Below the pieces are notes generated by a model. That model worked only from the letters and a program-made list of their open reading frames with translations. It made no database searches and had not been told where the DNA came from. This document shows, one piece after another, positions 3-53,051 of a stretch of DNA of 53,051 bases (the stretch's first letter is position 1; each line of letters begins with the position of its first letter). Source of the DNA: a virus (lineage: Duplodnaviria > Caudoviricetes); the IMG/VR virus record IMGVR_UViG_3300047278_000016, positions 1-53,051 of that record; one strand, 5' to 3'. A program made the position numbers and the translations under genes.

Positions 3-3000
3 CCACCCCCACCGCCTCCTCCGCCAAAGACAACGCCGGACGCAGTACGGGAAGCCCGTGTTCAGGAAGAATACGAAAGGTTAGTTGCATTAGGTACGCC
101 GCTTGATACTGCTAGGAATATGGCAGCGCGTAGAGTTGCTGCTGCTATTAAAGCTGAAAATAAAGCTGCGGCTGTTAACATACCCAAAGACCGTGTAGAG
201 CAGATTACACAAGAACTGATTGCGGCTGGTGTTCCACCACAACAGGCAAAGATTGACGCACAGCAATTAGCCCAAGAGGAGGCACAAGCAGATGAGCTTG
301 CGCAGAACGAAACAGGAGGAACAGCAAATGTTGCTGAACCTATCAGTACTCCAAGTAGAGAAGGCGTTAGCGTGGCTGGACAGCCCAGTGCAGAACCCCC
401 CACCGCAGGAGTTGGAGTCACTGAGCCAAGTGGAGTGGTTCCTACTGGACAGGATGCTGCAGGAGCTACTACTGGAGAAGGAGCACAGCAGGCTGCATTA
501 GCGGCAGAAGAAGAACTAGATAAAAAAAGCGCAGCAGAAACGCAAAGTCTTCCGTTTGAAGAATTGCGCGCCAAAACAAAAGAAGGCGCTAGTGCCCCCG
601 GTAAGATATACACAGTCACCTATGATGACACCGATGTAGACCTAGAAGGTAATGAATTATTTACAAGGGTAAGCACGCAATATAAAGTAGTGCGTATGGA
701 TGGCGGCTGGACAGTTGTGTCTAGTGTAGAAGGTAACGACCCCGTTTTACTTCCGCCTTCTAGAGCGGCGGCAAACACTGATGAACAATTGGTAGCGGAA
801 CGGAATAATAAATCATCATTTGCAAGCAACACAATAGTTACACCTGCAAAACCTGCCCCACCAAAAACAGATACCGCATCTGAAACTGCATACGCTGAGC
901 GTATCAAGGACGATCCAACAGCCCCTGCGTATAACGATACTGATGCCCGTATTAAACGTGTTGCTGACCGTTACGAACAAGCGGGTGATGCAGTTATGGC
1001 CCGTATGGTTCGCGATGTACCTGAACAACGTCGCCCTTCTTACGAAGAAACAGCGCAATTAGAAAAAGATCAGGATCAAATATTTGCGGATAAAGATAAA
1101 GAGCAAGCTTTTCAAACTAAAAAAGCTAAAGTTGAAAGTATTGCCCGTTCAAATGCAAGCACTGCGTTTGACCAAGCAGGTGACTACGCTAGCCTTCAAG
1201 AAGCAATTGATTCCTATGAGATAAACATGGGGGATACATTGGTAGAAGAAGGGTTTAAAAATGACCCTGACTATGACGACCTAGTTAGAGCGGCCAACCG
1301 CGCATTTGCAGCCGAAGTTAATAGACAAAAAGGAACTACTAGTGGCACTGAAACCTCTGAAGCCAAGCAAGCAACGCAAAAAGGACAAGCGGCATCAGGA
1401 GCCGGAACAGGTAAAGGTAAACGCGGTCGGCCACCTGTTCAGCAACGCCACGTAGTTACAGAAAATTCCGAAGGTGGGTTTGACCACGTTACAGATGGCG
1501 AAGTAACTGCAACGTACAAGAACAAGAAGCAAGCTATTGCGGCTGTTAATCTGGCGAGGTCTAAAGATAAAGGCGATGCTGCATTAATTGCTAAGAATCA
1601 AGAGAAACTTGATAAAACACTTGCGTCTACAGGCCGAGGCCGACCAACTAAAGCTCCGTCAGAGGATGGTACTACTGAAGTAGACCAAGAAGCGCGTGAA
1701 GAAATTAATAGGTTGGAATCAGCGCTTGAAACGTACAACTCAACTACGGATGACAAAGAAGCTAGAAACTCAGCACTGTACATTAGTGATGCCGCAGTTG
1801 ACCCAAATGTGCCTAAAGCTGCACGTGAACGTGCTCAGCAAATGCTTGAGGACGATATTGATCCAAAAGACATACCCAAAGGTTTGCGTTCTTCTGAAGC
1901 AAGGGTTGCCAAGCCCGACACAGGGTTTAGCGGGCTAATTAACGGCTCACAAGCAATTGCGCACATTATTAAGACTGGTAATTTATTCCAGCGGTTTGTA
2001 GCGCAACGCATCCGTAACTTTGTAATTAATGTTAAGTTTGTGGTGGTTGAGAAGGGCGATCCAATTCCGTCTCAATTAAGTGGCGCTCGTGGTTTGTTTG
2101 TTTATACACCCGGATCTAAAGAACGTACCATATACGTGCGTGGTAGTAGCTTCGGAGACCAACAAGGTATAAACGTTATAACAGTGCTACACGAATTGCT
2201 GCACGCAGCAACTGCTAGTCGTATTGACGCAGGTCTATTCAAAGGGTTTAAGAACGCTAGCTTGCAAAAGTTTATGCGCGAAATGGAAAGCCTAATGAAG
2301 CGTGCGCAAGAAGCGTACGAAGAAGGCGTGCTGTTTGGTGACCTGTCTCCAGAAGTGCAAAAAATGATTGAAGGCACTACTGACCGCGACAGAACAGGCA
2401 AAGTATCTATTGGCGTGTTTTCCGACCCCCATGAGTTCTTGGCTTACGGCATGTCTAGCCCTGAGTTTCAAAAGTTCTTAATGAGCGTGCAGGGTAAACG
2501 TGGCACAGGTTTCTCTGGGTTTGTTAGTAGCATCCGTGATCTGTTTGGGATTAAGCAAGGTGAAGCTACTGCGTTTACTGATCTGGTTGACATTACCGAC
2601 AAGATGCTCGGCACAAGGTTAACCGCAGTTGAAACAAAAGGTGGCGCACTCCCACAAAAGGGCGGCTTTACTCCTCCTGAGTTTGACGAAGACGCGGATA
2701 AGGGTGAGCAAAAAGAACTACGCACCGCCAAAGAACTTAATAAGGCTCGCGTAAAAGCTGAAATCACATATCAGCAATCTGCGGACTCTCAAAAAGTTAA
2801 GAACGCTGGAATGCTGCAAAAACTTAGAGATCCAGAGAAAGCCAAGATATTGTTCAAGGGCGCTTGGAAAAAAATGAATAGCGCCCAGCGTGCGGTGGCA
2901 GTGCGACTCCCAACTTGGGACTTTTTGGCCGACTGGGTTAAGGCCGAGTTACCTCAAGTTCAACAAGCGCTGGACTTGCACAACGACATGAAGGGTATGA

Positions 3001-20913: not shown

Positions 20914-22173
20914 TTAATCCTTGACAAGAATCGTTTTGCCGTTGTCTGCAACACAATCGTTTCCTCCTACGATCGCCCACAGTACAGGCGCAGTCCAGTC
21001 ACTACCCCAATCGCTACCAACATACCCATCGGTGAGCATGATGACGCACTCGGGTACGATACGTTTCTCTTTCAGATACTCAGATACACATGAGGGTGAC
21101 GTACCTCCACCACCTCTAGGCTTAGTAGAGTTGATGATGTTAGACACATCGTTCTCGGAGTACTCCTCGTGTGCGGCTACTCGGCTATCCCAATAGATCA
21201 AGTCCACTTGGCTAGGCTTTACTTCTTCTGCGATACCCTTAACTTCTGTTAGGAAGCCCGACAACTCTTCTTGCCCAACCGAACCGGATGTGTCTACGGC
21301 AATAACCATATGACCAACCTTCTCTCCGATCAAGCTAGGCATGTACGTACCCATAGACAAGAACCTACGATTCACCCTACGCCATGACGATGTATCTTTT
21401 GCGCTACACGTAGACTTCACGAACTCACGCAACATTTCACGCCAGTCGACCTTGGGTTCGAGCAACTCGAGCAAGTCACGATCGAGATCACCACCACCAG
21501 TTCCCGCAATCTTTTGGTGCGCCATTACTCCTTGGCGGATAGCCTGATCTATCTCACGCTCGAGAACCTTCTTCTCCTCCTCGGTCATCTCCTTTGCACC
21601 ATCCCAATCGTGGTCATCGAACCCTTTGCCCTGACCTTGACCCTGACCTCGGCTATTCCCACCCTCTTGATCTGACGGCTCTCCGTCATCGCAAGGGTTC
21701 TCGCCCTTGTTCTTCTGCTCCTCTTTGAGTAGGTCGAACACTTGCTTGGCATTGAGTCCACGATACTTCTCGTCAAGTAAACCCATCGGCTTACCCTTCA
21801 ACTCACCATCCGCCCAACGTGGCATCGCAATGACACGCTCGCTAGGATCGAGGTCTTTGAGCTTAAGGTTAATCACGTAGTCACAAGCCGCATTTGCCAG
21901 CGAATGATTCTCATCGTGCAACTTACGCCATGTAGTCAAGTGACGAAACGCCTTGTGTAGATTCTCATGGAGTACCACGAAATTCAACTCAGGCTCTTTG
22001 AGCATAGCCACGAACTTGCGACCATACTTCTCGTCTCTTCCGTTGGTGCATGCAGTTGGGATGTTATCCACTACACTCGTACGACCAACCATCAAAATGC
22101 CAGACCAAAGGGCAAACCTCGGGTCACGCATCAATGTAATCTTCGCCTTCTGTACTTTACGTTCTTCTAACAT
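20914..22173 (-). CDS. DUF2201-type metallopeptidase-like + vWA domain protein
   Basis: LHENLH (HExxH), NAACDYVIN, VDTSGS MIDAS, GGGT, LTDGY. Confidence 0.85.
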   Translation of the reverse strand: MLEERKVQKAKITLMRDPRFALWSGILMVGRTSVVDNIPTACTNGRDEKYGRKFVAMLKEPELNFVVLHENLHKAFRHLTTWRKLHDENHSLANAACDYVINLKLKDLDPSERVIAMPRWADGELKGKPMGLLDEKYRGLNAKQVFDLLKEEQKNKGENPCDDGEPSDQEGGNSRGQGQGQGKGFDDHDWDGAKEMTEEEKKVLEREIDQAIRQGVMAHQKIAGTGGGDLDRDLLELLEPKVDWREMLREFVKSTCSAKDTSSWRRVNRRFLSMGTYMPSLIGEKVGHMVIAVDTSGSVGQEELSGFLTEVKGIAEEVKPSQVDLIYWDSRVAAHEEYSENDVSNIINSTKPRGGGGTSPSCVSEYLKEKRIVPECVIMLTDGYVGSDWGSDWTAPVLWAIVGGNDCVADNGKTILVKD

Positions 22174-22190
22174 TTGTTACCTTTCGTTGT

Positions 22191-22571
22191 TTAATAATCA
22201 CACTCAATACTTCTATTCACATACAGTAAGCTCTCGGCTTCCGAGCAACTGCGTTCTTCTACATCTTCTACCTCCTCTCCTAGACGCACGAACTCCCACA
22301 ACCATTTGTCCCCACCATCGCTGAGCTTCTCGAACTTCTCGATCGCTTGCTCGAACCCCTTTACATCGGGGTACGATGGATACCACTTCATCCCATTCAT
22401 GGTGAACTTGATACCCTGTACGTGTCTAGGCATACCACCACTAAACAACCGCATGTACTCGTCACCCCTGAAGAACTCGGGAATGTTCTCGTCAATGAAT
22501 AGCTTCATTGCAGGGTACTCCGTAGGGTCGTAGGTGTAGAACACCGCCATCACATCACTTCTGTATCCCAT
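22191..22571 (-). CDS. Hypothetical protein
   Basis: MGYRSDV...KWY...FVRLGEE 126-aa ORF. Confidence 0.7.
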   Translation of the reverse strand: MGYRSDVMAVFYTYDPTEYPAMKLFIDENIPEFFRGDEYMRLFSGGMPRHVQGIKFTMNGMKWYPSYPDVKGFEQAIEKFEKLSDGGDKWLWEFVRLGEEVEDVEERSCSEAESLLYVNRSIECDY

Positions 22572-22776
22572 GATCTAATCCTTCCAATATCATTTTCAAA
22601 ACCTTTTCACAAACTTGTTTATCGGGATGCTCGAACAAAGTCTTGCAATCCCTTGTGTCGTATACACAGTACCCGACCACTAGCAAATCCCAGTCAGTAT
22701 GTTCACCATGCTCAGTTACCCACCTAACTATGTACCGCCTGAAGTCGGTTGCACTTGTGCCGTTCATTCCTAACAT
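22555..22776 (-). CDS. Hypothetical protein
   Basis: 73-aa ORF; start lies in a palindrome copy. Confidence 0.6.
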   Translation of the reverse strand: MLGMNGTSATDFRRYIVRWVTEHGEHTDWDLLVVGYCVYDTRDCKTLFEHPDKQVCEKVLKMILEGLDHGIQK

Positions 22777-22779
22777 TTG

Positions 22780-23844
22780 TTAGAGTAGGTCTTGGTTCTT
22801 AACAACCCAGTCCTTGAACGCACTGCTTGAGAAAGCAATGGATTGTTTGGCGGGATTCTTGGCAATGTTGATTGCGAACACGGCTTGCCACTCGGCATCG
22901 AATCGAGACAAGTAATCCATGAATGGACTAATGGTTTCTTTCGTAATGCGAGAGATAGCACCGAACACCACAATGGCACATGCGCCCGGACTTGTGGGTA
23001 CAGTCGTAGTCTTTGGCTCTTTAATCGTGGCCTCCCATGTAGGGAGTTGGTCAGAGAACTCAATGTACGCTTGCATATCACGCGCACCCGATTCACCAAT
23101 CGCACCGGTCAAGGCGGCAATCACCGAATCAGGGTCGTTCTCTTTGCGAGTCCGTACAATGTTCGATGCTGTCTCCAATGAGCGTGGTGATACGAACGCA
23201 TGCTGAGCTTTGCGTGGGTTGTAGATGTATGGGTTGTCACCTTGTGCCGCATCGGTATAGCTTGCAAGTACGTGAGGGAAACGATTCACCCATGCAATCA
23301 CCTCGGCTTCGAGTCCCTTACCAATAGCCCACTCAATCCACTGCTCGGCATCGGGTTTGCAAATTGTTACCGGCACTAGTCGGTTACGGCTATGCGCTTT
23401 GAGGGAGTCGCCTACGCCATCGGTCGTCAGATTACCAGTCAAGAACACTATGGTATTGGCGGTGAGGGGAATGTCACCGAGTCGTGGGTTTGCCTTCTCA
23501 AGCATAGGGTGAAGCATGTTCTTCACAGGGTCAGCACCCTTCGTGAACTCATCAAGCATGATGACCAATGGCTTGTTCTCATGAATACGAAAACGTGCAT
23601 TGGGGTAGTAGCGTGTGGTCTTGGAGTCGTGGTCGATCACAGGCATTGCGATGTCACCCAAGTCCATATTGGGTACGTCAATATAGGCATACTCAAAGCC
23701 GAGGGAGTCGGCAATATTCTCTAGTAGGGAGGACTTCCCAATCCCGGGCTCGCCTTGCAGTAAGAACCGAGTCGTTGGGTTTGTGCGGATAAGGTTAGCC
23801 GCTTGCTTCAAGGTAATTGATTTACCGAAATTGATTTCTGCCAT
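22780..23844 (-). CDS. MoxR-like AAA+ ATPase
   Basis: GEPGIGKS Walker A, MLDEF Walker B, TGN, RNR, SPRS; upstream of the vWA gene. Confidence 0.85.
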   Translation of the reverse strand: MAEINFGKSITLKQAANLIRTNPTTRFLLQGEPGIGKSSLLENIADSLGFEYAYIDVPNMDLGDIAMPVIDHDSKTTRYYPNARFRIHENKPLVIMLDEFTKGADPVKNMLHPMLEKANPRLGDIPLTANTIVFLTGNLTTDGVGDSLKAHSRNRLVPVTICKPDAEQWIEWAIGKGLEAEVIAWVNRFPHVLASYTDAAQGDNPYIYNPRKAQHAFVSPRSLETASNIVRTRKENDPDSVIAALTGAIGESGARDMQAYIEFSDQLPTWEATIKEPKTTTVPTSPGACAIVVFGAISRITKETISPFMDYLSRFDAEWQAVFAINIAKNPAKQSIAFSSSAFKDWVVKNQDLL

Positions 23845-42595: not shown

Positions 42596-43263
42596 ATTAC
42601 ACCGCACTCAGCACTGCTATTCAAGCGTACACGGAGAACACGGAAGCAGATTTCGTGGCTAATATTCCCGTGTTCGTTACGCAGGCTGAGCAGCGTATTT
42701 ACAACACTGTTCAGTTCCCGTCTATTCGTAAGAACGTGACGGGTGTGGTATCTACCACTAGTACATATTTGTCCGCACCAGATGACTTCTTGGCTGTGTA
42801 TTCTTTGGCTGTTGTTGATGCAACCGGCAACTACGAATACCTACTGAACAAAGATGTAAACTTTATTCGTCAAGCGTACCCTGACCCAACTGAAACAGGT
42901 TTGCCTCGGTATTACGCTTTGTTTGGCCCAACAGTCAGTGGTAGCACGATTACTGATGAGTTGACATTCATTGTTGGCCCCAAGCCAGATGCCAACTACA
43001 CAGTTGAGTTGCATTACTACTATTACCCAGAATCTATTACGGTTGCGGCGGATGGGCGTACATGGCTTGGTGACAACTTTGATACCGTGCTTTTGTATGG
43101 TTCTTTGGTTGAGGCTTACACCTACATGAAGGGTGAGGCTGACATGATGGGGCTGTACAATGGTAAATACCAAGAAGCTTTGGCACTTGCAAAACGTTTG
43201 GGCGATGGTATGGAGCGTCAAGACGCTTACCGTTCTGGTCAGTTCCGTCAGAAGGTAACTTGA
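42592..43263 (+). CDS. Putative tail/adaptor (connector) protein
   Basis: FVTQAEQRI; GLPRYYA; GPKPD..Y; LLYGSLVEA. Confidence 0.6.
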   Translation: MNYTALSTAIQAYTENTEADFVANIPVFVTQAEQRIYNTVQFPSIRKNVTGVVSTTSTYLSAPDDFLAVYSLAVVDATGNYEYLLNKDVNFIRQAYPDPTETGLPRYYALFGPTVSGSTITDELTFIVGPKPDANYTVELHYYYYPESITVAADGRTWLGDNFDTVLLYGSLVEAYTYMKGEADMMGLYNGKYQEALALAKRLGDGMERQDAYRSGQFRQKVT

Positions 43264-43264
43264 T

Positions 43265-43684
43265 ATGTCGATTGTCCAAACCCAAACTACCAGCTTTAAA
43301 GCGCAGTTGTATCAAGGTATTCACGACCTGACGACCGACGTCATCAAGATCGCTCTGTACACGGCTAATGCCAACCTGAATCAAGATACAACCGTTTACA
43401 GTTCAACTGATGAAGTAGCTAATACAGGTACGTATGTGGCTGGTGGCGCACAGTTAACACCCATTACGGTATCGTCTTCAGGATACACAGCCTATGTTGG
43501 CTTTCCAGACATCTCGTGGACGGGTGCAATTACTGCAAGGTGTGCGTTGATCTATAACGTCACGCAGGGTAATAAGTCTGTTGCTGTGTTGGACTTTGGT
43601 TCAGACAAAATTTCTACAACTACGTTCACTATTACCATGCCGACAAACGGCCCAACCACTTCATTAATTAGGAGTTCAAATTGA
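43265..43684 (+). CDS. Virion structural protein
   Basis: SFK..L....HD....IKIALY; paralogue of 43883-44344. Confidence 0.65.
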   Translation: MSIVQTQTTSFKAQLYQGIHDLTTDVIKIALYTANANLNQDTTVYSSTDEVANTGTYVAGGAQLTPITVSSSGYTAYVGFPDISWTGAITARCALIYNVTQGNKSVAVLDFGSDKISTTTFTITMPTNGPTTSLIRSSN

Positions 43685-43872
43685 TTGTTAATACAACCAA
43701 AGGCGAAATGGACGATTCTCTTCTTGAGAAAAAAGAAGGCTTCGTTGATAATGACGACGAGTACACCACTTGGGTGGAGTATTGGTTGGACGGGGAACTT
43801 GTGCACAGATCCGCGCACGTTCAATTAAAAACATCCGTGGTTCTTTCAGGTTCCACAGCTTCTTTCGAGTAA
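43681..43872 (+). CDS. Hypothetical protein
   Basis: TTKGEMDDSLLEK...EYWLDGELVHRS. Confidence 0.65.
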   Translation: MIVNTTKGEMDDSLLEKKEGFVDNDDEYTTWVEYWLDGELVHRSAHVQLKTSVVLSGSTASFE

Positions 43873-43882
43873 AGGAAATATC

Positions 43883-44344
43883 ATGGCAAATACACAAGCA
43901 ATGTGCACATCGTTCTTAGGTGAATTGATGACGGCAACGCATAACTTCACAACTAGCACGGGCAACACTTTTAAAGCTGCGCTGTACTTCTCTTCCGCTA
44001 CGCTTAACGCGTCGACAACTGCGTACTCTACCACTGGTGAAGTAACAGGCACTAACTATATTGCCGGCGGTGTTACGGTGACTAACGGTACATCTCCGTT
44101 ATCCTCAAATACATCGACTACTGCTGGTACAGGTTATTGGACACCCAGCGCCAGCATTACGTATTCAAATGTGACAATCAACTCTGCGTCTTTTAACTGC
44201 GTGTTGATTTACAACTCAACATCTTCTAACAAGGCTGTTAGCGTTCATACCTTTGGCGATCAGACTGTGACTGCCGGTACGTTCACTTTGACAATGCCTT
44301 CAAACACCACATCTACTGCGTTGCTGCGTTTAGCTACAACCTGA
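43883..44344 (+). CDS. Virion structural protein
   Basis: SF..EL....HNF....FKAALY; paralogue of 43265-43684. Confidence 0.65.
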   Translation: MANTQAMCTSFLGELMTATHNFTTSTGNTFKAALYFSSATLNASTTAYSTTGEVTGTNYIAGGVTVTNGTSPLSSNTSTTAGTGYWTPSASITYSNVTINSASFNCVLIYNSTSSNKAVSVHTFGDQTVTAGTFTLTMPSNTTSTALLRLATT

Positions 44345-44368
44345 TCTTCCTAAACAGGAGGGCAGGAC

Positions 44369-45211
44369 ATGACAACCGCATGGGGCGCAGGGGCGTGGGG
44401 CGACAATAGCTGGGGGGGTCTGCAATCAGAAATCTCCGGCGTAGCCGCGTCTGGCGCTGTTGGTACGGTTGGCGTTGAGTTTATTTATGAGGTAGCTATT
44501 ACAGGCGTAGGGGCTACCGGTGCGGTTGGGTCAGTTACTGTTGCTGAAAGACAAATTGCCCTGACGGGGGTTGAGGCTTCTGGCTCCCCGGGCACGGTTA
44601 CTGTTGCAGAACGGTCTTTTGCAATCACGGGGGTTGAGGCTTTTGGTGCTGTTGGAATCGTGGCTGTTAGCGCAGCAGAAAACGAAGACGGCGTAATTGC
44701 TACGGGTTCAGTTGGCACAGTTGTACCAGCGCAATTTGTTGCGTTGTCGGGCGTATCTGCTACAGGCGCAGTTGCTACTGTTGGGTTTACTTACGGCGCT
44801 AACATTGATGGAATAAGCGCTTCCGGTGCTGTTGAGACTCCGGGGTCTAGCAGAACAGTAGCGCTTACAGGTGTTTCCGCTACAGGCGCAGTTGGTACAG
44901 TGTTGTTCCAATGGCAAGCTGGTAGCGTTGAAGCTATTGGCTCAGTTGGTAATGTGTCGGTTGGCAGCATTACAGTTGCGTTGACTGGCGTAGCGGCTTC
45001 GGGGCTTATTGGAAACGAAGTTCCGGTTAAAGAAATTGAAATTACAGGTGTAGCAGCTACAGGTGCGGTTGGCACAATGACTATGGGCGAGAGACTTGTA
45101 GCTGTGACCGGCAATCAAGCTATGGGCCGATTAGGTACTTTTGGTGTGTTTTACTGGAGTCTAATTGATGACAGCGAGACAGCAAACTGGCAAAATATCA
45201 CTACAGTGTAG
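44369..45211 (+). CDS. Repetitive tail fibre-like protein
   Basis: WG repeats followed by ~22-aa (L/I)TGVxAxGAVGTV repeats. Confidence 0.6.
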   Translation: MTTAWGAGAWGDNSWGGLQSEISGVAASGAVGTVGVEFIYEVAITGVGATGAVGSVTVAERQIALTGVEASGSPGTVTVAERSFAITGVEAFGAVGIVAVSAAENEDGVIATGSVGTVVPAQFVALSGVSATGAVATVGFTYGANIDGISASGAVETPGSSRTVALTGVSATGAVGTVLFQWQAGSVEAIGSVGNVSVGSITVALTGVAASGLIGNEVPVKEIEITGVAATGAVGTMTMGERLVAVTGNQAMGRLGTFGVFYWSLIDDSETANWQNITTV

Positions 45212-45242
45212 CCAAGTGCTACACACATATAGGAGCATTTAA

Positions 45243-46232
45243 ATGGCAGCAACGACGACTCTTTTGGGCTTAGTCACCCCCACACAGGGAACGCTCTCTG
45301 GTACGTGGGGCGACACAGTCAACTACGGTATTACCGACTACGTGGATATTGCTATTGCGGGCACGTTAAGTTTTGCCGGTGATGGCGCTATTACTCTGGC
45401 AAATACCACGGGTAGTGCATCAGGAAACGGACTAACTACCACGACAGCCCAGTACATGGTAATTCGTGTTACAGGTACGCTGACGACTACAAAAATTATT
45501 ACTGGCCCAAGTTACAGCAAACTGTACATGGTGGATCACGCAGGCGCTACCAGCGCAGTGACCTTTAAAGCTGCCGGGCAAACAGGCGTAACAATTGCTG
45601 TGGGTGAAAAAGCGTTTGTGTATTACAACGGTACGGATTATGTCAAAGTATCTAGCATTAGTTCAACGGGTATTCTTAGCCCCGTTGGTGGCGGTACAGG
45701 CGTAGCAAACAATGCGGCAAGCACGCTGACTATCTCCGGGGCTTTTGCAACAACGCTAACTGTTTCTGGAACTACGGGCATAACACTTCCCACAACGGGA
45801 ACTCTAAGCACTTTGGCGGGTACAGAGACTCTATCCAACAAGACTCTAACAGCCCCCGCACTAGGTACTCCTGCAAGCGGCACACTCTCAGCTTGTACAG
45901 TAGACGGCACAAACAAGGTTGGCTATCTCAACATTCCACTATCAGGTACTAAAACAACAAGTTATACGCTTGTTGTGGGTGACGTTGGTAAGTTTGTTAT
46001 CCTTGGAACAAGTGGAACAGTCGTAGTCCCAGCAAGTATTTTTGCTGTAGGCGATGCAATTTCTGTTGCTAATAATACGGCTGCGGCTATTACTTGTACT
46101 TCATCGGCAGTTACGGCTTATCTTGGCGGTACAAATACCGTAGTGACTTCTTTTTCATTAGCATCAAGAGGTGTTTGCACTATTCTTTATGTAACCGCTT
46201 CTGTTGTCTTTATTACAGGAAACGTGTCATGA
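45243..46232 (+). CDS. Tail fibre protein
   Basis: SGTWG.TVN N-terminus; GGTG; TETLSNKTLTAP; Thr/Gly-rich. Confidence 0.65.
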   Translation: MAATTTLLGLVTPTQGTLSGTWGDTVNYGITDYVDIAIAGTLSFAGDGAITLANTTGSASGNGLTTTTAQYMVIRVTGTLTTTKIITGPSYSKLYMVDHAGATSAVTFKAAGQTGVTIAVGEKAFVYYNGTDYVKVSSISSTGILSPVGGGTGVANNAASTLTISGAFATTLTVSGTTGITLPTTGTLSTLAGTETLSNKTLTAPALGTPASGTLSACTVDGTNKVGYLNIPLSGTKTTSYTLVVGDVGKFVILGTSGTVVVPASIFAVGDAISVANNTAAAITCTSSAVTAYLGGTNTVVTSFSLASRGVCTILYVTASVVFITGNVS

Positions 46233-47698
46233 GTGGAATGATGCTGGCCTTTGCTGGTGGTAGCTACGGTGCTGCCCCAGTCAACACTGTGGCTCCGGTA
46301 GTCTCAGGTACGGCCACCGTTGGACAAACTCTTTCAACTACAAACGGTACTTGGCTGGGCGCACCAGCGCCAACATTCACATATCAGTGGCAACGCACGG
46401 GATCAAACATTAGCGGCGCAACTTCAAGTACATACGTACTCGTTGCAGCAGATTACGCCAATACAATTCGCTGCGTTGTAACAGCTACCAATTCAATTGC
46501 ACCTGCGGGTGTTTCGGCTAATTCTAACTCTACAGCTTCTGTAGCGGGTAATGCCCCTGTGAATACCGTTGCTCCAGCAGTTACAGGTACGGCCACTGTT
46601 GGTCAGACTTTAAGTTCAACTACAGGTACTTGGACGGGTGTTCCAACACCTACATTTGCGTATCAATGGCAACGTGTAACTACCAATATCAGTGGGGCAA
46701 CTTCTAGTACTTATGTGCTGGTTAACGCCGATGCTGCTAGTACAATCCGCTGTGTTGTAACTGCGACTAACGCAGTATCCGCCGTAAGTGCAAACTCAAA
46801 CTCGACCGCTTCTGTAGCGGCAATTGCTCCCGGCGCACCAACAATTGGTACTGCTACATCAACGGGTTCTTCTACAGCAACTGTGGCATACACAGCGCCA
46901 GCAAGCAATGGTGGAGCTACGATTACGGTTTACACAGCAACATCTTCGCCAAGTAGTATTACGGGCACACTAAGCCAAGCAGGTTCTGGGACTATTACTG
47001 TGTCTGGTTTGGCGGCAGGTACAGCATATACATTTACTGTTACAGCAACTAATTCTGCGGGTACAAGTGCGGCAAGTGCGGCAAGTAACAGCATAACTAC
47101 ATTACCGGCTATTGGTTCTTCATACGGAGGCGGTTACTTTGCGGGTCAAATTTCAACCTCCGGTAACGGAATTGCTAACTTTAACCTTGTTATTGGCCCT
47201 TTAGCTTCAGCTAACAATAACAACAAGCAATGGAAAACATCTGACACTACTACGGCAGGTACATCCTCCAATATTGACGGCCCCGGTAATAGTGCAACCA
47301 TGAACAACGCAAGTCATCCAGCGGCGCAATTCTGTGAGGGGTTATCTGTTGGTGGCTTTACCGACTGGTATATGCCAGCTAAAAATGAGTTGGAAGTCTG
47401 CTATTACAACTTAAAGCCCACGACACAGAATAACAATACTGCATCTGGAATAAATGCAAATGCTGTGCCTGCAAGGGCAAGTAACTACACTTCTGGAAGC
47501 CCAGCGCGAACCTCCGTTGCTATCTTTCAACAAGGTGGAGCAGAAGCGTTTCCGGATAACCCTTCTTACTGGGCTAGTACTCAGAACCCTTCGTATGCGA
47601 CGCGTGGAATGGTACAGTATTTTAGTGACGGTAATCAACTTGGCCGCTATAAGACGGGCTACTACCGTGTTAGAGCAGTTCGCAGGGTTGCGGTATAA
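46229..47698 (+). CDS. Receptor-binding/tail protein: two Ig-like repeats + FN3 + C-terminal DUF1566/Lcl-like domain
   Basis: Two APVNTVAP..GTATVGQTLS..GTW..YQWQR repeats; FN3 (PGAPT...YTFTVTATN); GFTDWYMPAKNEL...YWAST...VRAVRR; start MSGMML. Confidence 0.75.
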   Translation: MSGMMLAFAGGSYGAAPVNTVAPVVSGTATVGQTLSTTNGTWLGAPAPTFTYQWQRTGSNISGATSSTYVLVAADYANTIRCVVTATNSIAPAGVSANSNSTASVAGNAPVNTVAPAVTGTATVGQTLSSTTGTWTGVPTPTFAYQWQRVTTNISGATSSTYVLVNADAASTIRCVVTATNAVSAVSANSNSTASVAAIAPGAPTIGTATSTGSSTATVAYTAPASNGGATITVYTATSSPSSITGTLSQAGSGTITVSGLAAGTAYTFTVTATNSAGTSAASAASNSITTLPAIGSSYGGGYFAGQISTSGNGIANFNLVIGPLASANNNNKQWKTSDTTTAGTSSNIDGPGNSATMNNASHPAAQFCEGLSVGGFTDWYMPAKNELEVCYYNLKPTTQNNNTASGINANAVPARASNYTSGSPARTSVAIFQQGGAEAFPDNPSYWASTQNPSYATRGMVQYFSDGNQLGRYKTGYYRVRAVRRVAV

Positions 47699-47707
47699 GG
47701 AAGCAAT

Positions 47708-48136
47708 ATGAAATATATTTGTGTAACCGAAGTAGACGCAGTAACTAAAATACCTTGCACTATTGAACCCCAACGCACAGGCCCGTCAATGCCCGATGTA
47801 AAAGGTTGGGTTTATATATGGAGCAACAGTTCTGTTTGGCCTGTTGAGGTCGCACCTAATGGCACATACCTTCGCGCACCTAAATATTACGGTACTTGCG
47901 ATGATGATGCTGACATTACTATTGCGGGCGTTTTACAGGTGTTGACAGAAGAAGATTACACAACAGCTAAAATTGCCGAGCACGAAGCCCGTAGACCTTA
48001 CCCATCTTGGGTTGGCTACTTGGACACAATGACTTGGGCAGCACCTGTAGCAAGGCCAGCAGATGCTGTTATGAATGGTGGGAATGTGCGTTATAAATGG
48101 GATGAAACCGCAGTTAATTGGATTCCAATGGTATGA
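47708..48136 (+). CDS. Tail fibre-associated protein
   Basis: RPYPSW...W.APV.RP...YKWDE...W motif. Confidence 0.55.
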   Translation: MKYICVTEVDAVTKIPCTIEPQRTGPSMPDVKGWVYIWSNSSVWPVEVAPNGTYLRAPKYYGTCDDDADITIAGVLQVLTEEDYTTAKIAEHEARRPYPSWVGYLDTMTWAAPVARPADAVMNGGNVRYKWDETAVNWIPMV

Positions 48137-48954
48137 AAGAGTTTTTCTTTATCTCAGGTTTACCAAGATCAGGATCAACCCTACTCTCAGCAATCCTGCG
48201 ACAGAACCCTGAGTTTTACGCCGACATTTCATCCCCCGTCCAAGGCTTGGTGGCATCAACCATTAACGTTATTACGGGCAGTGAGAGTAACCACCTGATT
48301 GATGAAGGTCGACGCAAACACATCCTTAAGTCTATTTTTAATGCGTTTTACGAAGCCGTTGAACCGACTACTGTGTTTGACACAAGCCGAGGTTGGACAG
48401 CTAAGACATCGCTTCTAAAAGACCTGTACCCACAGACCAAGATCATCTGCTGTGTGCGTGATCTGCCTTGGATACTGGACAGTTTTGAGCGCATTTCGGC
48501 TAAGAATTCTTTGTATGGCGCGACCCTGACAGATGATGAAGCGCGGCAAACAGTTACAACAAGATGCGATGCCTTGATGGATGTCAAAAAAGAAGGCCAA
48601 GTAGTCAAGCCCTACTATTTCTTAGAAGAAGGCTTGTTGTTAAACCCCGACATGATTATGTTGGTTGAGTACGAATCTTTGTGCAAACAGCCTGAGAGCG
48701 TAATGCGGGAACTGTACGGATTTATCAACAAGCCCTATTACGATCATGATTTTAAAAATGTTGAGTACGATAATGAAGTGTTTGACAAAGCGTTGAACAT
48801 GAAGAGCCTGCACACGGTCAGGAAAGAAGTTACATGGCAAGAACGCCCGTCCATCTTACCCAAATCGGTTTGGGAAAAATACAGCGGTAAAGAGTTCTGG
48901 CGCATACCAGCACCAGAGTTTTCAATAAAACAACTTTACAAGGTTAAGGGATGA
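48133..48954 (+). CDS. Sulfotransferase family protein
   Basis: SGLPRSGSTLL (5'-PSB loop), KIICCVRD....LDS (3'-PB), VEYESL..QP. Confidence 0.85.
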   Translation: MKEFFFISGLPRSGSTLLSAILRQNPEFYADISSPVQGLVASTINVITGSESNHLIDEGRRKHILKSIFNAFYEAVEPTTVFDTSRGWTAKTSLLKDLYPQTKIICCVRDLPWILDSFERISAKNSLYGATLTDDEARQTVTTRCDALMDVKKEGQVVKPYYFLEEGLLLNPDMIMLVEYESLCKQPESVMRELYGFINKPYYDHDFKNVEYDNEVFDKALNMKSLHTVRKEVTWQERPSILPKSVWEKYSGKEFWRIPAPEFSIKQLYKVKG

Positions 48955-49739
48955 AACGCATATTGATTATGGGCTTGCCCGGCGCTGGTAAAACTTACCT
49001 TGCACAACACGTTCTTGAGCATTTGCAAAACAACCGCAAAACAGTTATGTGGCTTAACGCTGATGATGTGCGTAAGAAATACAACGACTGGGACTTTTCC
49101 CATGAAGGCCGTATTCGCCAGAGTTTGCGTATGCGTGAGTTGGCTGACAGCTACGATGTAGATTATGTGATCTGTGACTTCGTTGCCCCGTTGGTTGAGA
49201 TGCGCAACAACTTTAAAGCTGATTGGACTGTCTGGGTTGACACCATTAACCAAGGCCGATTTGAAGACACTAACAAGGTGTTTGTCGCTCCAGAGCAGTA
49301 CGACTTTAGGGTTACTGAGCAAAAAGCTGAGAAGTGGGGTGAGTTTATTGCCGCGCACATCTTGGACAATCGCCAACGCCCTGTATTTGATTGGCAAAAA
49401 GAGACCGTGCAGATGCTTGGCAGATGGCAACCTTGGCATGAAGGCCACCGTAAGTTGTTTGAAAGAGCCTTGGCTAAGACTGGTCAAGTTGTAATTCAGA
49501 TTAGAGATTGCCAAGGCTGGAATGGTTCTAACCCCTTTGCGGCTAATCAAGTAAAAGACTTTATTAAGCGTGATCTTGACCCCTTATATCAAGGTCAGTA
49601 CGAGATTCAGCTTGTGCCTAATGTAGTTAATATTACCTATGGTCGGGATGTAGGTTACAAAATTGAGCAAGAGTCTTTTGACGATGCCACACACGCAATC
49701 TCTGCAACCAAGATACGCAAACAAATGGGCGTAGGTTAA
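48951..49739 (+). CDS. Adenylylsulfate-kinase-like domain fused to an HxGH nucleotidyltransferase domain
   Basis: MGLPGAGKT P-loop, LNADDVR, DFS.EGR, FVAP; then GRWQPWHEGH, NPF and ISATKIR. Confidence 0.8.
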   Translation: MKRILIMGLPGAGKTYLAQHVLEHLQNNRKTVMWLNADDVRKKYNDWDFSHEGRIRQSLRMRELADSYDVDYVICDFVAPLVEMRNNFKADWTVWVDTINQGRFEDTNKVFVAPEQYDFRVTEQKAEKWGEFIAAHILDNRQRPVFDWQKETVQMLGRWQPWHEGHRKLFERALAKTGQVVIQIRDCQGWNGSNPFAANQVKDFIKRDLDPLYQGQYEIQLVPNVVNITYGRDVGYKIEQESFDDATHAISATKIRKQMGVG

Positions 49740-49746
49740 AACATGT

Positions 49747-50037
49747 ATGCGATGGCTCCTTCTGCTACTGTTGCTGTTGGGGCTAGTTGGAGCCGTAGCC
49801 AAGAATGGCTGTCATGTGCGCGAGTTCTATGGAATAGCCTACACAGTTCACAACCCGACCGAGCGACACCAAGAGATGGTAGCGTGGCTAGACAGAAATG
49901 CGCCCTACTGCAAGTCAACCGAATACATGGTGATCTGGAACAATCTGTCCGAATGGGCGGGTACGGCAGACTCCACATGGCTTAGAGCAAAAATAGTTCA
50001 TGGATACAAGGATGCACTTGAGAGGGAGAAGAAATGA
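49747..50037 (+). CDS. Secreted/membrane-anchored hypothetical protein
   Basis: MRWLLLLLLLLGLVGAVA signal-like N-terminus. Confidence 0.65.
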   Translation: MRWLLLLLLLLGLVGAVAKNGCHVREFYGIAYTVHNPTERHQEMVAWLDRNAPYCKSTEYMVIWNNLSEWAGTADSTWLRAKIVHGYKDALEREKK

Positions 50038-50270
50038 TAGAAACCATCAGATTATTTCCAACCGTTCAGGCATCTGGGTATCCAGACAAGCATGACCTTG
50101 CCCAAGCTAAACTAGAGAAACAGCACGAAGTTAACAAGACCCTTGAGGTAGCCAAGCAAAAGCAGACGGCATTGCAAGACATAGGGTTTGAAATTTATTG
50201 TAAGAAGGTGGTTCAAGAGCGGCTCCGTATGGAGATATTCACAAACCGTAAGCTGGATATTTATGTATGA
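50034..50270 (+). CDS. Hypothetical protein
   Basis: ATGA overlaps on both sides. Confidence 0.6.
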   Translation: MIETIRLFPTVQASGYPDKHDLAQAKLEKQHEVNKTLEVAKQKQTALQDIGFEIYCKKVVQERLRMEIFTNRKLDIYV

Positions 50271-50551
50271 CCAAGAAACCGATACCCAGAACGCCCCGCA
50301 AGCCAGTGCCGGACACCAAGGAAAAGCTGACGCTGTACGTCACGCTGATGGTAAGCACGACATTGTGCATCTCTGTTTTGGCTATGGTGGTCAGCTTTAT
50401 GCTTGGCCTTTGGGCCAAGGAAGTGGACAACGCAGAAATCTTCAAGATGATTTCACCCGCTTTTTCTACACTTATCGGCGGCATGATTGGGTTCCTGAGT
50501 GGTATCAAACTCATGCAGAATGATGAAAAATCTAAATCTTGTAAGGACTGA
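50267..50551 (+). CDS. Two-TM membrane protein (holin-like)
   Basis: Two hydrophobic helices; lysis region. Confidence 0.55.
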   Translation: MTKKPIPRTPRKPVPDTKEKLTLYVTLMVSTTLCISVLAMVVSFMLGLWAKEVDNAEIFKMISPAFSTLIGGMIGFLSGIKLMQNDEKSKSCKD

Positions 50552-50553
50552 CT

Positions 50554-51048
50554 ATGTTTGATGTATTAAGTGGTGGTATTCTAGGCTCCATCTTTGGTGG
50601 TCTGTTCCGTATGGCCCCCGAGGTGCTGAAGTTCTTTGATAAGAAGAATGAGCGCCAGCATGAACTATTGATGTTTACACGCCAATGTGAACTAGAGACA
50701 CTGCGCGGTCAGCAGAAGTTGGCTGAGATTGGCGCACAACGGGAAGCCGCTATTGACGTAGGTGTAATGGATGCGTTTCAGTCTGCCATAGAACAACAAG
50801 CCACAATGGTCAAGGCCGCTGGTGGTTGGGCGGCTAGTCTATCCGCTTCTGTCAGGCCAGTCGTAACTTACTGGGTGCTGTTTGTGTGGAGCTTTATCCA
50901 CGTATGGTTTGCATGGAACGCATGGATCACTGGCGCTCCTCCCGTAGAAGTATTTAAGATAATGATGTCACCAGACTTCTCAGCTTTGCTTGCTGGGACA
51001 ATTAACTTCTGGTTCCTTGATCGTACATTGGCTAAGAGGGGTCTGTAA
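50554..51048 (+). CDS. Putative holin (3TM/GTA-type)
   Basis: ASVRPVVTY, TM helices, FWFLDR.L.K end; upstream of lysozyme. Confidence 0.6.
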   Translation: MFDVLSGGILGSIFGGLFRMAPEVLKFFDKKNERQHELLMFTRQCELETLRGQQKLAEIGAQREAAIDVGVMDAFQSAIEQQATMVKAAGGWAASLSASVRPVVTYWVLFVWSFIHVWFAWNAWITGAPPVEVFKIMMSPDFSALLAGTINFWFLDRTLAKRGL

Positions 51049-51342
51049 ATGACCAAAGATGAAATCATTGAGATGGCTAAACAGGCGGGCTATTCAGTTG
51101 ACACGTTTGGATTTGGGATATGGGATTCAGCAGAGTTCAATCGCTTTGCCAAGCTAATAGCAGAGCATGAGCGTGACAAATTAATTGATGCCGCAATGAA
51201 AGCGGCTGAGAAAGGAATTGATACAGCAATAGCTCTTGAGCGTGAAGCGTGTGCGCAAATGCTAGAAGCGGCTTCAAAAACAGGAAAAATAATAAGTTGT
51301 ACAAGCGCGGCTGAAGCCATCCGAGCAAGGGGACAGGCATGA
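51049..51342 (+). CDS. Hypothetical protein (EREACA type), apparently inserted
   Basis: MTKDEIIEMAKQAG...EREACA...AIRARGQ. Confidence 0.7.
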   Translation: MTKDEIIEMAKQAGYSVDTFGFGIWDSAEFNRFAKLIAEHERDKLIDAAMKAAEKGIDTAIALEREACAQMLEAASKTGKIISCTSAAEAIRARGQA

Positions 51343-51557
51343 AACTAATCGCATGGTACGACCCAACTAACGGCATGGTAAGTACAGACAAAGACAGCCC
51401 CCTGTTTACACCGCTTGGTCAGGTGTTGCCTTTATATCCACAGCGTACATGGGTAGGGCTAACGGATGCGGATCGGCTGGAATTAGCAGAGGCTCAACAT
51501 GGTTGGGAAGACTTGCTTATTGCGGCAGAAACCAAACTCAAAGAAAAAAACGCATGA
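51339..51557 (+). CDS. Small protein with WxGLTD...KLKEKN module
   Basis: PLYPQRTWVGLTDAD...AETKLKEKNA. Confidence 0.7.
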   Translation: MKLIAWYDPTNGMVSTDKDSPLFTPLGQVLPLYPQRTWVGLTDADRLELAEAQHGWEDLLIAAETKLKEKNA

Positions 51558-51997
51558 ACCTAGAACTAGCCGCAGAGATGTGCAAACGGTTTGAGGGCTT
51601 TCGCTCCAAGCCGTATTTGTGTCCTGCCAACGTAGCCACAATCGGCTATGGTTCTACCTATTACGCTGACAAGCGCAAGGTGACTTTGGAAGATACACCA
51701 ATGAGTCAGGAAGAAGCCCATGCGCTTTTGATGATTGAGCTTGAGCATACGTACCTGCCCGGTGTTCTGCGTAACTGCCCCGGCTTAATTCTGGACGAAC
51801 GCAGGTGTAACGCCATCGTGGATTTTGCCTACAATTTGGGCACTGGACGCTTGCAAACATCTACGTTAAAGAGGAAAATCAACGCTAATGATTGGGAAGG
51901 CGCAAAAGAACAACTGATGCTCTGGACTAAAGGCGGCGGTAAGGTACTGCCGGGTCTGTTAAAACGCCGTACTGCTGAGTGCGCACTGCTGGACTAA
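51554..51997 (+). CDS. Lysozyme (GH24 endolysin)
   Basis: FEG..PYLCPA.V.TIGYG; FAYNLG; GLLKRRTAE; start MNLELAA. Confidence 0.92.
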   Translation: MNLELAAEMCKRFEGFRSKPYLCPANVATIGYGSTYYADKRKVTLEDTPMSQEEAHALLMIELEHTYLPGVLRNCPGLILDERRCNAIVDFAYNLGTGRLQTSTLKRKINANDWEGAKEQLMLWTKGGGKVLPGLLKRRTAECALLD

Positions 51998-51999
51998 AA

Positions 52000-53051
52000 A
52001 TGCCATTACAGAAGATACTGTTCAAGCCGGGCGTGAATAAAGAGAACACGCGATACACCACTGAGGGTGGCTGGTATGAGGCCGACAAGGTGCGCTTTCG
52101 TCAGGGTAATCCCGAAGTAATTGGCGGCTGGCAACCTTACTCTGCGGCTACGTACCAAGGCGTATGCCGTTCATTGTGGAATTGGGTGACGCTGGGTGGC
52201 GATAATCTGATTGGTGTTGGCACAAACCTTAAGTTTTATCTTAACCAAGGCGGGCTTTACTACGACATTACGCCTATCCGGTCTACAACTGCGGCTGGCG
52301 ATGTAACGTTTGTTGGCAACGGCACAACTACGGTAACTGTTACAGATACAAACAATGGTTGCGTAACGGGCGACTTTGTCACCTTCTCTGGGGCTACTGG
52401 CACATACGCTACGACCCTTAATGCACAGTTTCAAGTTACCGTCTTAACAGCTAATACGTACACAATCTCAACCTCGCCTACTGTGGTTGCGGTTGGTGCT
52501 ACGGGCGGTTCTTCTGTTGTTGGCACGTACCAGATCAATGTTGGCCCCGCTATTCCTTCTCCTCTTGTGGGTTGGGGCGCTGGTACTTGGGGCAGTCCTC
52601 CCCCTGCATCTGGAACTATTGGCACATGGGGTTACGGCACGACTTCTACATCCGCGCTTCGCTTGTGGAACCAGATTAACTACGGCCAAGATTTAGTGTA
52701 CGGCCCACGTACAGGGTCTATTTATTATTGGAATGCGACCAACACTATAAATACCCGTGGGGTACTGCTTAATTCTTTGGGCGGTAATGTAACGTTTACT
52801 AACGCTTCGCCGACTGTGGTGACTTCCACCATACTTTATACCGAAGGCGCGGCGCTTCAATTTGCGGCCACCACATCTTTACCTACAGGCATTAGTGCGG
52901 CAACAACTTACTACGTATTTGAAGTTAATGGGTTGACATTCAAACTTTTAGACAGCGCAGGTGCGGTAGTCAATACGTCTTCTACAGGCACAGGGGTGTA
53001 TGTGTCTTTGATTGTGGACGTGCCCGTAGTTCAAAACAACATGACGGTGTC
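52000..53051 (+). CDS. Tail/DNA-stabilisation structural protein, 3'-truncated
   Basis: MPLQKILFKPGVNKENTRY..EGGWY..DKVRFR.G.PE.IGGW; frame appears open to the window end. Confidence 0.7.
   Translation, partial: MPLQKILFKPGVNKENTRYTTEGGWYEADKVRFRQGNPEVIGGWQPYSAATYQGVCRSLWNWVTLGGDNLIGVGTNLKFYLNQGGLYYDITPIRSTTAAGDVTFVGNGTTTVTVTDTNNGCVTGDFVTFSGATGTYATTLNAQFQVTVLTANTYTISTSPTVVAVGATGGSSVVGTYQINVGPAIPSPLVGWGAGTWGSPPPASGTIGTWGYGTTSTSALRLWNQINYGQDLVYGPRTGSIYYWNATNTINTRGVLLNSLGGNVTFTNASPTVVTSTILYTEGAALQFAATTSLPTGISAATTYYVFEVNGLTFKLLDSAGAVVNTSSTGTGVYVSLIVDVPVVQNNMTV

Follow-up and report, generated by a model that had tools for sequence, protein, structure and literature searches.

Bifunctional 3'-phosphoadenosine 5'-phosphosulfate (PAPS) synthases, such as human PAPSS1/2 (1x6v) and the Sat-CysC protein of Aquifex aeolicus (2gks), combine an HxGH adenylyltransferase and an adenosine 5'-phosphosulfate (APS) kinase in one polypeptide of 530-630 amino acids (aa). 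Sulfotransferases can also be encoded together with dedicated sulfate-activating enzymes, as is the case for RaxST with RaxP/RaxQ in Xanthomonas and for NodH with NodPQ for the Nod factor. Here, we describe a related arrangement in the virus record IMGVR_UViG_3300047278_000016 (Duplodnaviria; Caudoviricetes), the entire 53,051 bp of which form the window analysed. A sulfotransferase gene in this window overlaps a gene for a 262-aa fusion of an APS kinase-like domain with an HxGH nucleotidyltransferase domain (Table 1). Like the RaxST and NodH loci, the window pairs a sulfotransferase with what would be its own sulfate activation; those loci use CysD/CysN-CysC homologues, whereas the window uses a small fusion encoded in a phage late region.

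The fusion also differs from PAPS synthases in its parts. The kinase halves of 1x6v and 2gks are homologous to its N-terminal half (Foldseek matches), whereas its C-terminal half is not detectably homologous to the ATP sulfurylase Sat beyond superfamily motifs. This adenylyltransferase half, at ~118 aa, is without the PUA-like domain, QxRN and GRDHAG, the kinase lid is shortened, and the family includes both domain orders as well as split forms. Adenylyl-sulfate kinase family genes in freshwater viral genomes from Lake Biwa have been read as sulfur-assimilation helpers (10.1101/655167); the passage on these genes does not discuss a nucleotidyltransferase half or linkage to sulfotransferases. 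No publication on the fusion, nor on any new ATP sulfurylase class, came up in our literature search. What would be new here is PAPS synthesis with a putative non-Sat adenylyltransferase.

We lean slightly towards the reading that the coupled sulfotransferase and fusion constitute a self-sufficient sulfation module, in which a minimal PAPS synthase feeds the sulfotransferase. More specifically, the proposed series begins with adenylylation of sulfate by the C-terminal HxGH domain (ATP + sulfate -> APS + PPi), a reaction that we infer. The trimmed APS kinase would then turn APS into PAPS by phosphorylating its 3'-OH, a step that is well supported, and with PAPS as donor the Sulfotransfer_3 enzyme would sulfate an acceptor that is produced late in infection. 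This acceptor could be a phage fibre or other virion protein, or a host envelope glycan.

The sulfotransferase and the kinase half of the fusion

A sequence-only reading of this DNA had proposed that a sulfotransferase containing GLPRSGSTLL is translationally coupled to the fusion. Its coordinates and motifs are confirmed, and so is the coupling, through an ATGA overlap of stop and start codons. The sulfotransferase matches Sulfotransfer_3 (PF13469; 63.7 bits for a cut-off of 27, 3.8e-17), Sulfotransfer_1 (PF00685; 4.2e-10) and phrog_27463 (2e-47). By sequence, the nearest solved structures are protein-tyrosine sulfotransferases (TPST) 1 and 2 (3e-5 to 5e-4) and the CurM sulfotransferase, and the alignment to TPST1 spans both the PRSGST 5'-phosphosulfate loop and the VRD...S 3'-phosphate motif. 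Judged by these motifs, the gene very probably encodes a working PAPS-dependent sulfotransferase. The TPST similarity (3e-5) is too weak to name its acceptor. A look-up in the ESM Atlas returned generic sulfotransferase clusters only. As a scale for the linkage counts below, the window sulfotransferase as a query gave only 10 matches among 50,697 phage records.

The N-terminal half of the fusion matches APS_kinase (PF01583) over residues 4-90 with 40 bits (cut-off 21.1, 5.2e-10); this match covers only profile positions 5-94 of 152. An AlphaFold2 model of the whole fusion, built from a 47-sequence alignment, has a mean predicted local distance difference test (pLDDT) of 95.1 and a predicted template modelling score of 0.76. 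In Foldseek searches with this model, the highest-ranking matches are APS kinases (target template modelling scores 0.57-0.79). Across 47 homologues with 33-55% identity, residues K14, D38, R41, F49 and R54 are either invariant or conserved to at least 90%. In the structures aligned over LDGD-R...F...R (2yvu, 2pey), they correspond to the P-loop Lys (K14), the LDGD Asp (D38), the phosphosulfate Arg pair (R41/R54) and the adenine-stacking Phe (F49). A study of Mycobacterium tuberculosis CysC describes the Asp, Arg and Phe residues of this set as holding the ribose, phosphosulfate and adenine of APS (PMC4373884).

Two features depart from full APS kinases. The first Asp of LDGD is replaced by Asn, and the kinase domain is ~140 aa long compared to ~175 aa, with a shortened lid; going by an alignment made by eye, F104 and F111 may take the place of residues missing from the lid region, which in full-length kinases has a second stacking Phe and a lid Lys. 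The earlier domain call, an APS kinase-like P-loop domain fused to an HxGH domain, is right, and the N-terminal half is very probably an APS kinase in trimmed form.

APS-kinase homologues with other substrates exist. In the phosphoramidate pathway of Campylobacter, such a homologue phosphorylates CDP-amidate. It is therefore conceivable that the pair makes another 3'-phosphorylated nucleotide donor, from which a sulfotransferase-fold enzyme transfers that other group, and in relatives the cassette lies among sugar-nucleotide genes (split HldE-like, epimerase, Glf and glycosyltransferase family 2, GT2). We regard this as very improbable: conservation extends to the phosphosulfate Arg pair and to the two PAPS motifs in the transferase, and the aprBA and CysD patterns described below point specifically to APS.

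Genomic partners of the two halves in viruses and SAR11

Clustering of the fusion family at 90% identity gives at least 7,999 clusters, and 2,129 representatives were obtained at 50% identity (E <= 1e-3). It is found in 593 stretches of IMG/VR and in 572 stretches of species-representative genomes, mostly of Pelagibacteraceae and other Alphaproteobacteria; the scan of the latter genomes used a smaller alignment (A2), the 47-sequence alignment (A1) being without a conserved stretch. Among cultured phages, the full fusion occurs in Sano-like phages of Xylella, Xanthomonas and Stenotrophomonas, in Clavibacter phage 33 and in DLP_6, at 38-42% identity.

The arrangement of the domains varies across the family. 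In P0223, the C-terminal domain is joined to a complete canonical APS kinase/CysC (PF01583, 211.9 bits); domain order is variable, P0194 also being reversed. That the C-terminal domain is tied to APS kinases in both orders supports a role in sulfate activation. In SAR11, the two halves are mostly separate, overlapping genes. A 489-aa metagenomic protein, P0180, is a triple fusion of an N-terminal region with a sulfotransferase-like loop (PRTGSH) followed by a trimmed APS kinase and a C-terminal domain without HxGH. The cellular contexts sampled include a SAR116 genome with a TPR-Sulfotransfer_3 gene, Arylsulfotran_2 genes in two Rhodospirillales and a sulfur-transport gene pair in one Pelagibacter, while several others have no sulfur link.

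The sequence-only reading had suggested surveying co-occurrence in related phages. We performed this survey on a close set of 80 IMG/VR loci (86-100% identity) and a diverse set of 79 further viral loci. A sulfotransferase gene lies near the fusion gene in 75 of the 80 close loci. The window-type sulfotransferase is directly 5' in 54 of them, and 18 match a 589-aa protein with an N-terminal Sulfotransfer_3 domain; for 16 of these 18, only the non-sulfotransferase part of this protein is within the fetched flank, and the three whole records that were checked, two of them from these loci, all contain the Sulfotransfer_3 domain. In two loci, another type of sulfotransferase (L081-type) lies 3' of the fusion gene, where the setting is T4-like and includes genes for GT2 and UDP-galactopyranose mutase (Glf), and one has a third type (L028-type). 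The remaining five have no sulfotransferase in the flank. The arrangement recurs in many related contigs and is therefore no accidental pattern of open reading frames (ORFs).

Among the diverse loci, at least 43 of 79 have a sulfotransferase. Within 5 kb, 26 have a Sulfotransfer_3-like ORF and 16 others a Sulfotransfer_2-like ORF of 180-200 aa, and one more was found by Pfam. The total is a lower bound, the local hidden Markov models being less sensitive than Pfam; three further neighbours show a PRxGST-like motif only.

These counts also bear on the role of the module in the infected host. Viral CysC and CysH have been read as serving assimilatory sulfate reduction in the Lake Biwa virome preprint (10.1101/655167), and the genes studied here could likewise be auxiliary metabolic genes that boost cysteine production of the host. 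We find this improbable, given the translational coupling to a sulfotransferase here, the sulfotransferase linkage in most relatives, and a window in which Pfam finds no PAPS reductase.

Bacterial genomes allow the two halves to be followed separately. In the sat-aprMBA sulfite-oxidation clusters of sulfur oxidisers, for example Allochromatium vinosum, sat lies 5' of aprMBA. In three of four SAR11 regions fetched, a stand-alone gene for the C-terminal domain occupies this sat position, and it encodes an NMNAT-like protein of 126-130 aa, compared to 350-400 aa for Sat. Most SAR11 are reported to lack ATP sulfurylase despite having AprAB (PMC10356861).

We counted each feature in 121 SAR11 genomes from the family of a Pelagibacter genome. 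For CysD, a CysD-specific model was used; PAPS_reduct matches all genomes through related PP-loop enzymes. The C-terminal domain is found in 71 genomes and the kinase half in 49, all 49 of which also have the C-terminal domain. AprB is present in 60 genomes, 59 of them with the C-terminal domain, and CysD in seven, none of which has it. Sulfotransfer_3 occurs in 38 genomes (29 with the C-terminal domain), of which 28 have the kinase pair, five have CysD and five have neither.

The 22 genomes with the C-terminal domain and no kinase separate the partners of the two halves. AprB is present in 20 of them, the C-terminal domain lies within 4 kb of aprB in 18, and neither Sat nor CysD is found in any. 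Sulfotransfer_3 occurs in only one of these 22 compared to 28 of the 49 genomes with the kinase. In SAR11, the distribution of the C-terminal domain thus tracks APS reductase and that of the kinase tracks sulfotransferases, as would be expected of a sulfurylase and an APS kinase, respectively.

Four of the C-terminal domain regions were fetched (L249, positions 1711-5335, L250, L251 and L252, from genomes G011, G038, G070 and G120). Each contains a stand-alone ORF of 126-130 aa without a kinase, in a genome without Sat or CysD, and these ORFs share 54-57% identity with the window C-terminal domain. Three of the four regions have the order of an MFS-like or other membrane gene, a TENA-like gene, the C-terminal domain ORF, a gene for a 263-aa protein, aprB and aprA. 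The fourth differs in that its ORF stands before the MFS and TENA-like genes, which are followed by a membrane protein gene and aprBA. Accordingly, the ORF lies one to three genes 5' of a putative membrane anchor and aprBA in all four. The 263-aa protein 5' of aprB has four hydrophobic segments, and its identity as AprM is judged from these segments and its position only.

The SAR11 stand-alone protein is thus a candidate for the missing ATP sulfurylase. In the broadest form of our reading, for which we put the chances at even, the 115-130-aa NMNAT-like domain would be a third, unrecognised class of ATP sulfurylase that alone replaces Sat beside aprMBA of SAR11, and that together with a trimmed kinase forms the smallest known PAPS synthase, carried by many phages, this one included, for fibre or host-surface sulfation. 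If true, a core reaction of the sulfur cycle would have a new enzyme family. It would account for the disposal of AprBA-derived APS in SAR11, which rank among the ocean's most abundant bacteria and for the most part lack ATP sulfurylase, and would close the gap in the sulfite-to-sulfate pathway of SAR11 without a known sulfurylase. Phages from lakes to plant pathogens would supply their own activated sulfate for sulfotransferases.

Ancestry and predicted activity of the C-terminal half

The 118-aa C-terminal half carries the motifs GRWQPWHEGH, YGRDVGY and ISATKIR, and residues 157-184 match CTP_transf_like with 21.9 bits (cut-off 21). Conserved positions are G157, R158, Q160, P161, H163, H166, G231, R232 and R256. 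The HxGH (H163-E-G-H166) and ISxTxxR catalytic motifs are retained across the family; both are superfamily-wide and not specific to Sat.

This conservation bears on whether the domain is catalytic at all. Fungal ATP sulfurylase carries an APS-kinase-like regulatory domain, and known Sat/CysC fusions include degenerate partner domains, so the C-terminal half could be without catalytic function and instead regulate or stabilise the kinase by binding nucleotides or mediating oligomerisation. An example of such a partner is the Thiobacillus denitrificans APS kinase with an inactive sulfurylase-like domain (3cr8), and the relative P0180 has a degenerate C-terminal domain that has lost HxGH. We nevertheless think a purely non-catalytic role has little chance of being correct: in diverse sets of 47 and 34 sequences, H163, H166, R158, S251 and R256 are either invariant or conserved to at least 90%, and the domain is a stand-alone, kinase-free gene in 22 of the 121 SAR11 genomes.

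The sequence-only reading had likened the C-terminal half to ATP sulfurylase and proposed comparing the two by profile and structure; this comparison instead identifies NMN (nicotinamide mononucleotide) adenylyltransferases (NMNATs) as nearest. The AlphaFold2 model of the domain alone (pLDDT 95.4) gives Z scores of 10.4 with NMNAT (1f9a), 10.4 with NadM, 10.1 with PPAT and 9.1 with NadR. The Z score with the Thermus thermophilus ATP sulfurylase (1v47) is 8.8 over 112 aligned residues, below that of NMNAT, and other ATP sulfurylases score 5.5-6.3. PF01747 (Sat) does not match the fusion at E <= 1, and the QxRN sulfate motif and GRDHAG loop are missing, with GRWQP in place of QTRNP; the SAR11 Sat sequences carry HTRNVPH and VGRDHAG.

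The relationship to NMNATs (1f9a, 2qjt, 1ej2) is itself partial. The C-terminal half has the NMNAT signature GRxQPxHxGH and a match over the N-terminal half-domain, and it shares NPF and ISxTxIR with these enzymes, but it is ~50 residues shorter and falls below the family cut-offs (PRK01153, 30.6 vs 127 bits; TIGR01527, 28.3 vs 181). The profile match to NMNATs is limited to the first ~70-80 positions (4-69 for NadM) and ends before the acceptor-side segment. On the acceptor side, a family-specific YGRxVGY loop, of which only G and R are invariant, replaces ~25-30 residues. We also considered whether YGRDVGY corresponds to the GRDHAG loop of Sat, and dropped this correspondence: the Asp varies, with YGRGVGY and YGRKVGY in SAR11. 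Taken together, the C-terminal half is a minimal HxGH nucleotidyltransferase of NMNAT ancestry, outside the Sat family.

As to its activity, comparative genomics suggests that it probably acts as a sulfate adenylyltransferase. A number of results, from the domain itself and from its genomic context, count against this activity or the module built on it, the variable Asp just mentioned among them. ATP sulfurylases are absent from the Foldseek top 50 for the C-terminal half, which contains NMNAT, PPAT and NadR, and a 34-sequence profile of the domain matches NadM (6.9e-11) and archaeal NMNAT (1.3e-9) among PDB sequences and no ATP sulfurylase up to E = 10. The best NCBIfam matches are likewise NMNAT models. 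An hhalign comparison with three SAR11 Sat sequences gave a probability of 3% with only ISxTxIR aligned; homology to Sat could not be shown. In the viral set, 36 of the 79 diverse loci have no recognised sulfotransferase within 5 kb. In Sano-like phages, the fusion gene overlaps and directly follows a NADAR gene, and only a sub-threshold sulfotransferase-like gene is nearby. In SAR11, mutual exclusion of the C-terminal domain and canonical Sat was looked for and not found: Sat occurs in five of the 121 genomes, and four of these also hold the domain (p = 0.40). The SAR11 counts are not independent, since the genomes are related and their completeness is not displayed, and the aprBA operon with the C-terminal domain alone may represent a single clade. 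Finally, all 29 SAR11 genomes with both the C-terminal domain and Sulfotransfer_3 have AprB; therefore, APS could come from sulfite without a sulfurylase there.

The strongest competing explanation is that the kinase alone serves sulfation, using APS made by the host, and that the C-terminal domain is an NMN or other mononucleotide adenylyltransferase, for example for NAD replenishment during infection. NadM, archaeal NMNAT and NadR are its closest relatives in sequence and fold, with GRxQPxHxGH and NPF in common, and both the overlap with the NADAR gene in Sano-like phages and a NAD synthase gene 2 kb from the fusion gene in locus L242 fit such a role. Even so, we judge it unlikely. The kinase-free domain lies 5' of aprM-like, aprB and aprA genes and accompanies AprB in 59 of 60 SAR11 genomes; being present in only 71 of the 121, it cannot be their essential NAD enzyme. 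Moreover, its score is far under the NMNAT cut-off (30.6 vs 127 bits), ~25-30 acceptor-side residues are missing, and its fusions to APS kinases occur in both orders. In genomes, it is accompanied by APS kinase, sulfotransferases and aprBA rather than by NAD genes.

For sulfate adenylylation, and hence for the earlier claim that the fusion supplies PAPS to the sulfotransferase, the sulfotransferase linkage, the fusion to CysC, the aprBA linkage and the exclusion of CysD in SAR11 all speak in favour. That claim is largely right in kind, with a putative sulfurylase activity as its key step.

The NAD-related neighbours seen are limited to the NADAR gene of Sano-like phages and the NAD synthase gene of L242 (7552-8307), which lies downstream of the fusion gene on a large viral contig. 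The sub-threshold gene of Xylella phage Sano is gp33 (L001, 4963-5547), which encodes a 195-aa 'hypothetical' protein with a PRSRS loop and a Sulfotransfer_4 match (4e-4); it is located two genes before the fusion gene, with the NADAR gene between.

Gene neighbourhood and possible acceptors

Early and replication genes occupy the minus strand of the window at ~5.9-28 kb, and packaging, head and tail genes, including SU10-type adaptor proteins, occupy the plus strand from 28.6 kb. The module follows the fibre-like genes on this strand (Table 1). Its late-operon location had been taken to suggest virion modification, an argument that we find weak: the genes are on the same strand, but a scan of 43000-53051 gave 11 promoter and 12 terminator sites vs 12.6 and 11.0 expected, a signal not above chance and no evidence of an operon boundary. 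The Ser/Thr-rich composition ascribed to the adjacent fibres is borne out, with S+T fractions of 0.27-0.38 in the adjacent fibre-like proteins and of 0.20-0.38 over the four genes at 43883-47698, whose products are candidate acceptors.

Table 1. Features of the module and its surroundings in the window.
Feature	Coordinates	Strand	Evidence or position
Four Ser/Thr-rich fibre-like genes	43883-47698	+	Directly 5' of module; ORFs, composition
Last fibre gene	46229-47698	+	Ig/fn3 repeats, Lcl_C domain
142-aa protein, function unassigned	47708-48136	+	ORF; ATGA overlap with sulfotransferase start
Sulfotransfer_3 sulfotransferase, TPST-like, 273 aa from ATG	48133-48954	+	Pfam, PRSGST and VRD...S motifs
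ATGA stop/start overlap, sulfotransferase to fusion	48951-48954	+	Direct reading
Fusion gene, 262 aa	48951-49739	+	Contains GLPGAGKT, GRWQPWHEGH, ISATKIR
Fusion N-terminal half, residues 1-144, probable trimmed APS kinase	48951-49382	+	Pfam, fold, conserved residues
Fusion C-terminal half, residues 145-262, minimal HxGH nucleotidyltransferase, candidate sulfate adenylyltransferase	49383-49739	+	Motifs, model
Small membrane proteins and endolysin	49747-51997		3' of fusion gene

A second ATGA overlap, at 48133-48136 by direct reading, joins the ORF of the 142-aa protein to the sulfotransferase start. The only match of this protein is phrog_7759 (8.6e-6), for which no function is assigned, and a Pfam search with it gave no match. 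A homologue lies directly 5' of the window-type sulfotransferase in most of the 54 close relatives having that sulfotransferase, and in locus L205 a Phage_tail_APC chaperone occupies its position. The 142-aa protein is possibly a fibre-assembly or accessory protein.

Several of these features point to a virion acceptor, namely the location of the module behind the fibre genes, its coupling to the 142-aa gene, the tail-assembly chaperone of L205 and the TPST-like sulfotransferase. Other features point to a host glycan, namely the sugar-nucleotide and glycosyltransferase genes found in the same slot in relatives. In close loci without the window-type sulfotransferase, the fusion gene is followed by genes for a split HldE-like kinase and transferase, for an epimerase, for a cupin or for a methyltransferase, and the region is therefore a variable surface-chemistry cassette. 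In the window itself, Pfam searches of the scanned ORFs found no glycosyltransferase or other modification enzyme. DNA had also been named as a possible target of sulfation, for which we found no supporting evidence.

Sulfate adenylyltransferase activity of the C-terminal domain, if borne out, would imply sulfated structures on the virion or the host surface, which could affect adsorption, superinfection exclusion or recognition. Sulfation of fibres or of the host surface would be a modification not yet described for phages, and the small soluble fusion protein would provide a compact PAPS-regeneration part for biotechnology.

In locus L056 (4783-6953), the fusion gene is followed by a gene for a 143-aa full cytidylyltransferase-like protein, a PfkB kinase gene and an SDR epimerase gene, a set that looks like split HldE/HldD ADP-heptose genes. 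Similar sets occur in L054, L059, L062 and L077, and these loci adjoin RCC1-repeat fibre genes.

The last fibre protein of the window has two Ig-like repeats, one fn3 domain and a C-terminal Lcl_C (DUF1566) domain (2.6e-10). The C-terminal domain of Legionella Lcl binds sulfated glycans, which makes its occurrence beside a sulfation module curious.

A megablast search with 20 kb of the window gave no match among the 50,697 phage records, which therefore include no cultured close relative. One ORF is open at both ends of the window (51979-53049 and 3-5681) and would encode ~2,250 aa if joined. Its C-terminal part matches phrog_10089, 'DarB-like antirestriction' (5.4e-49), its N-terminal part matches a virion structural phrog, and the record looks circularly permuted through this giant virion protein gene. 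In the early region, a minus-strand gene at 20917-23844 encodes a DUF2201 metallopeptidase/VWA-like protein near a MoxR-type AAA ATPase.

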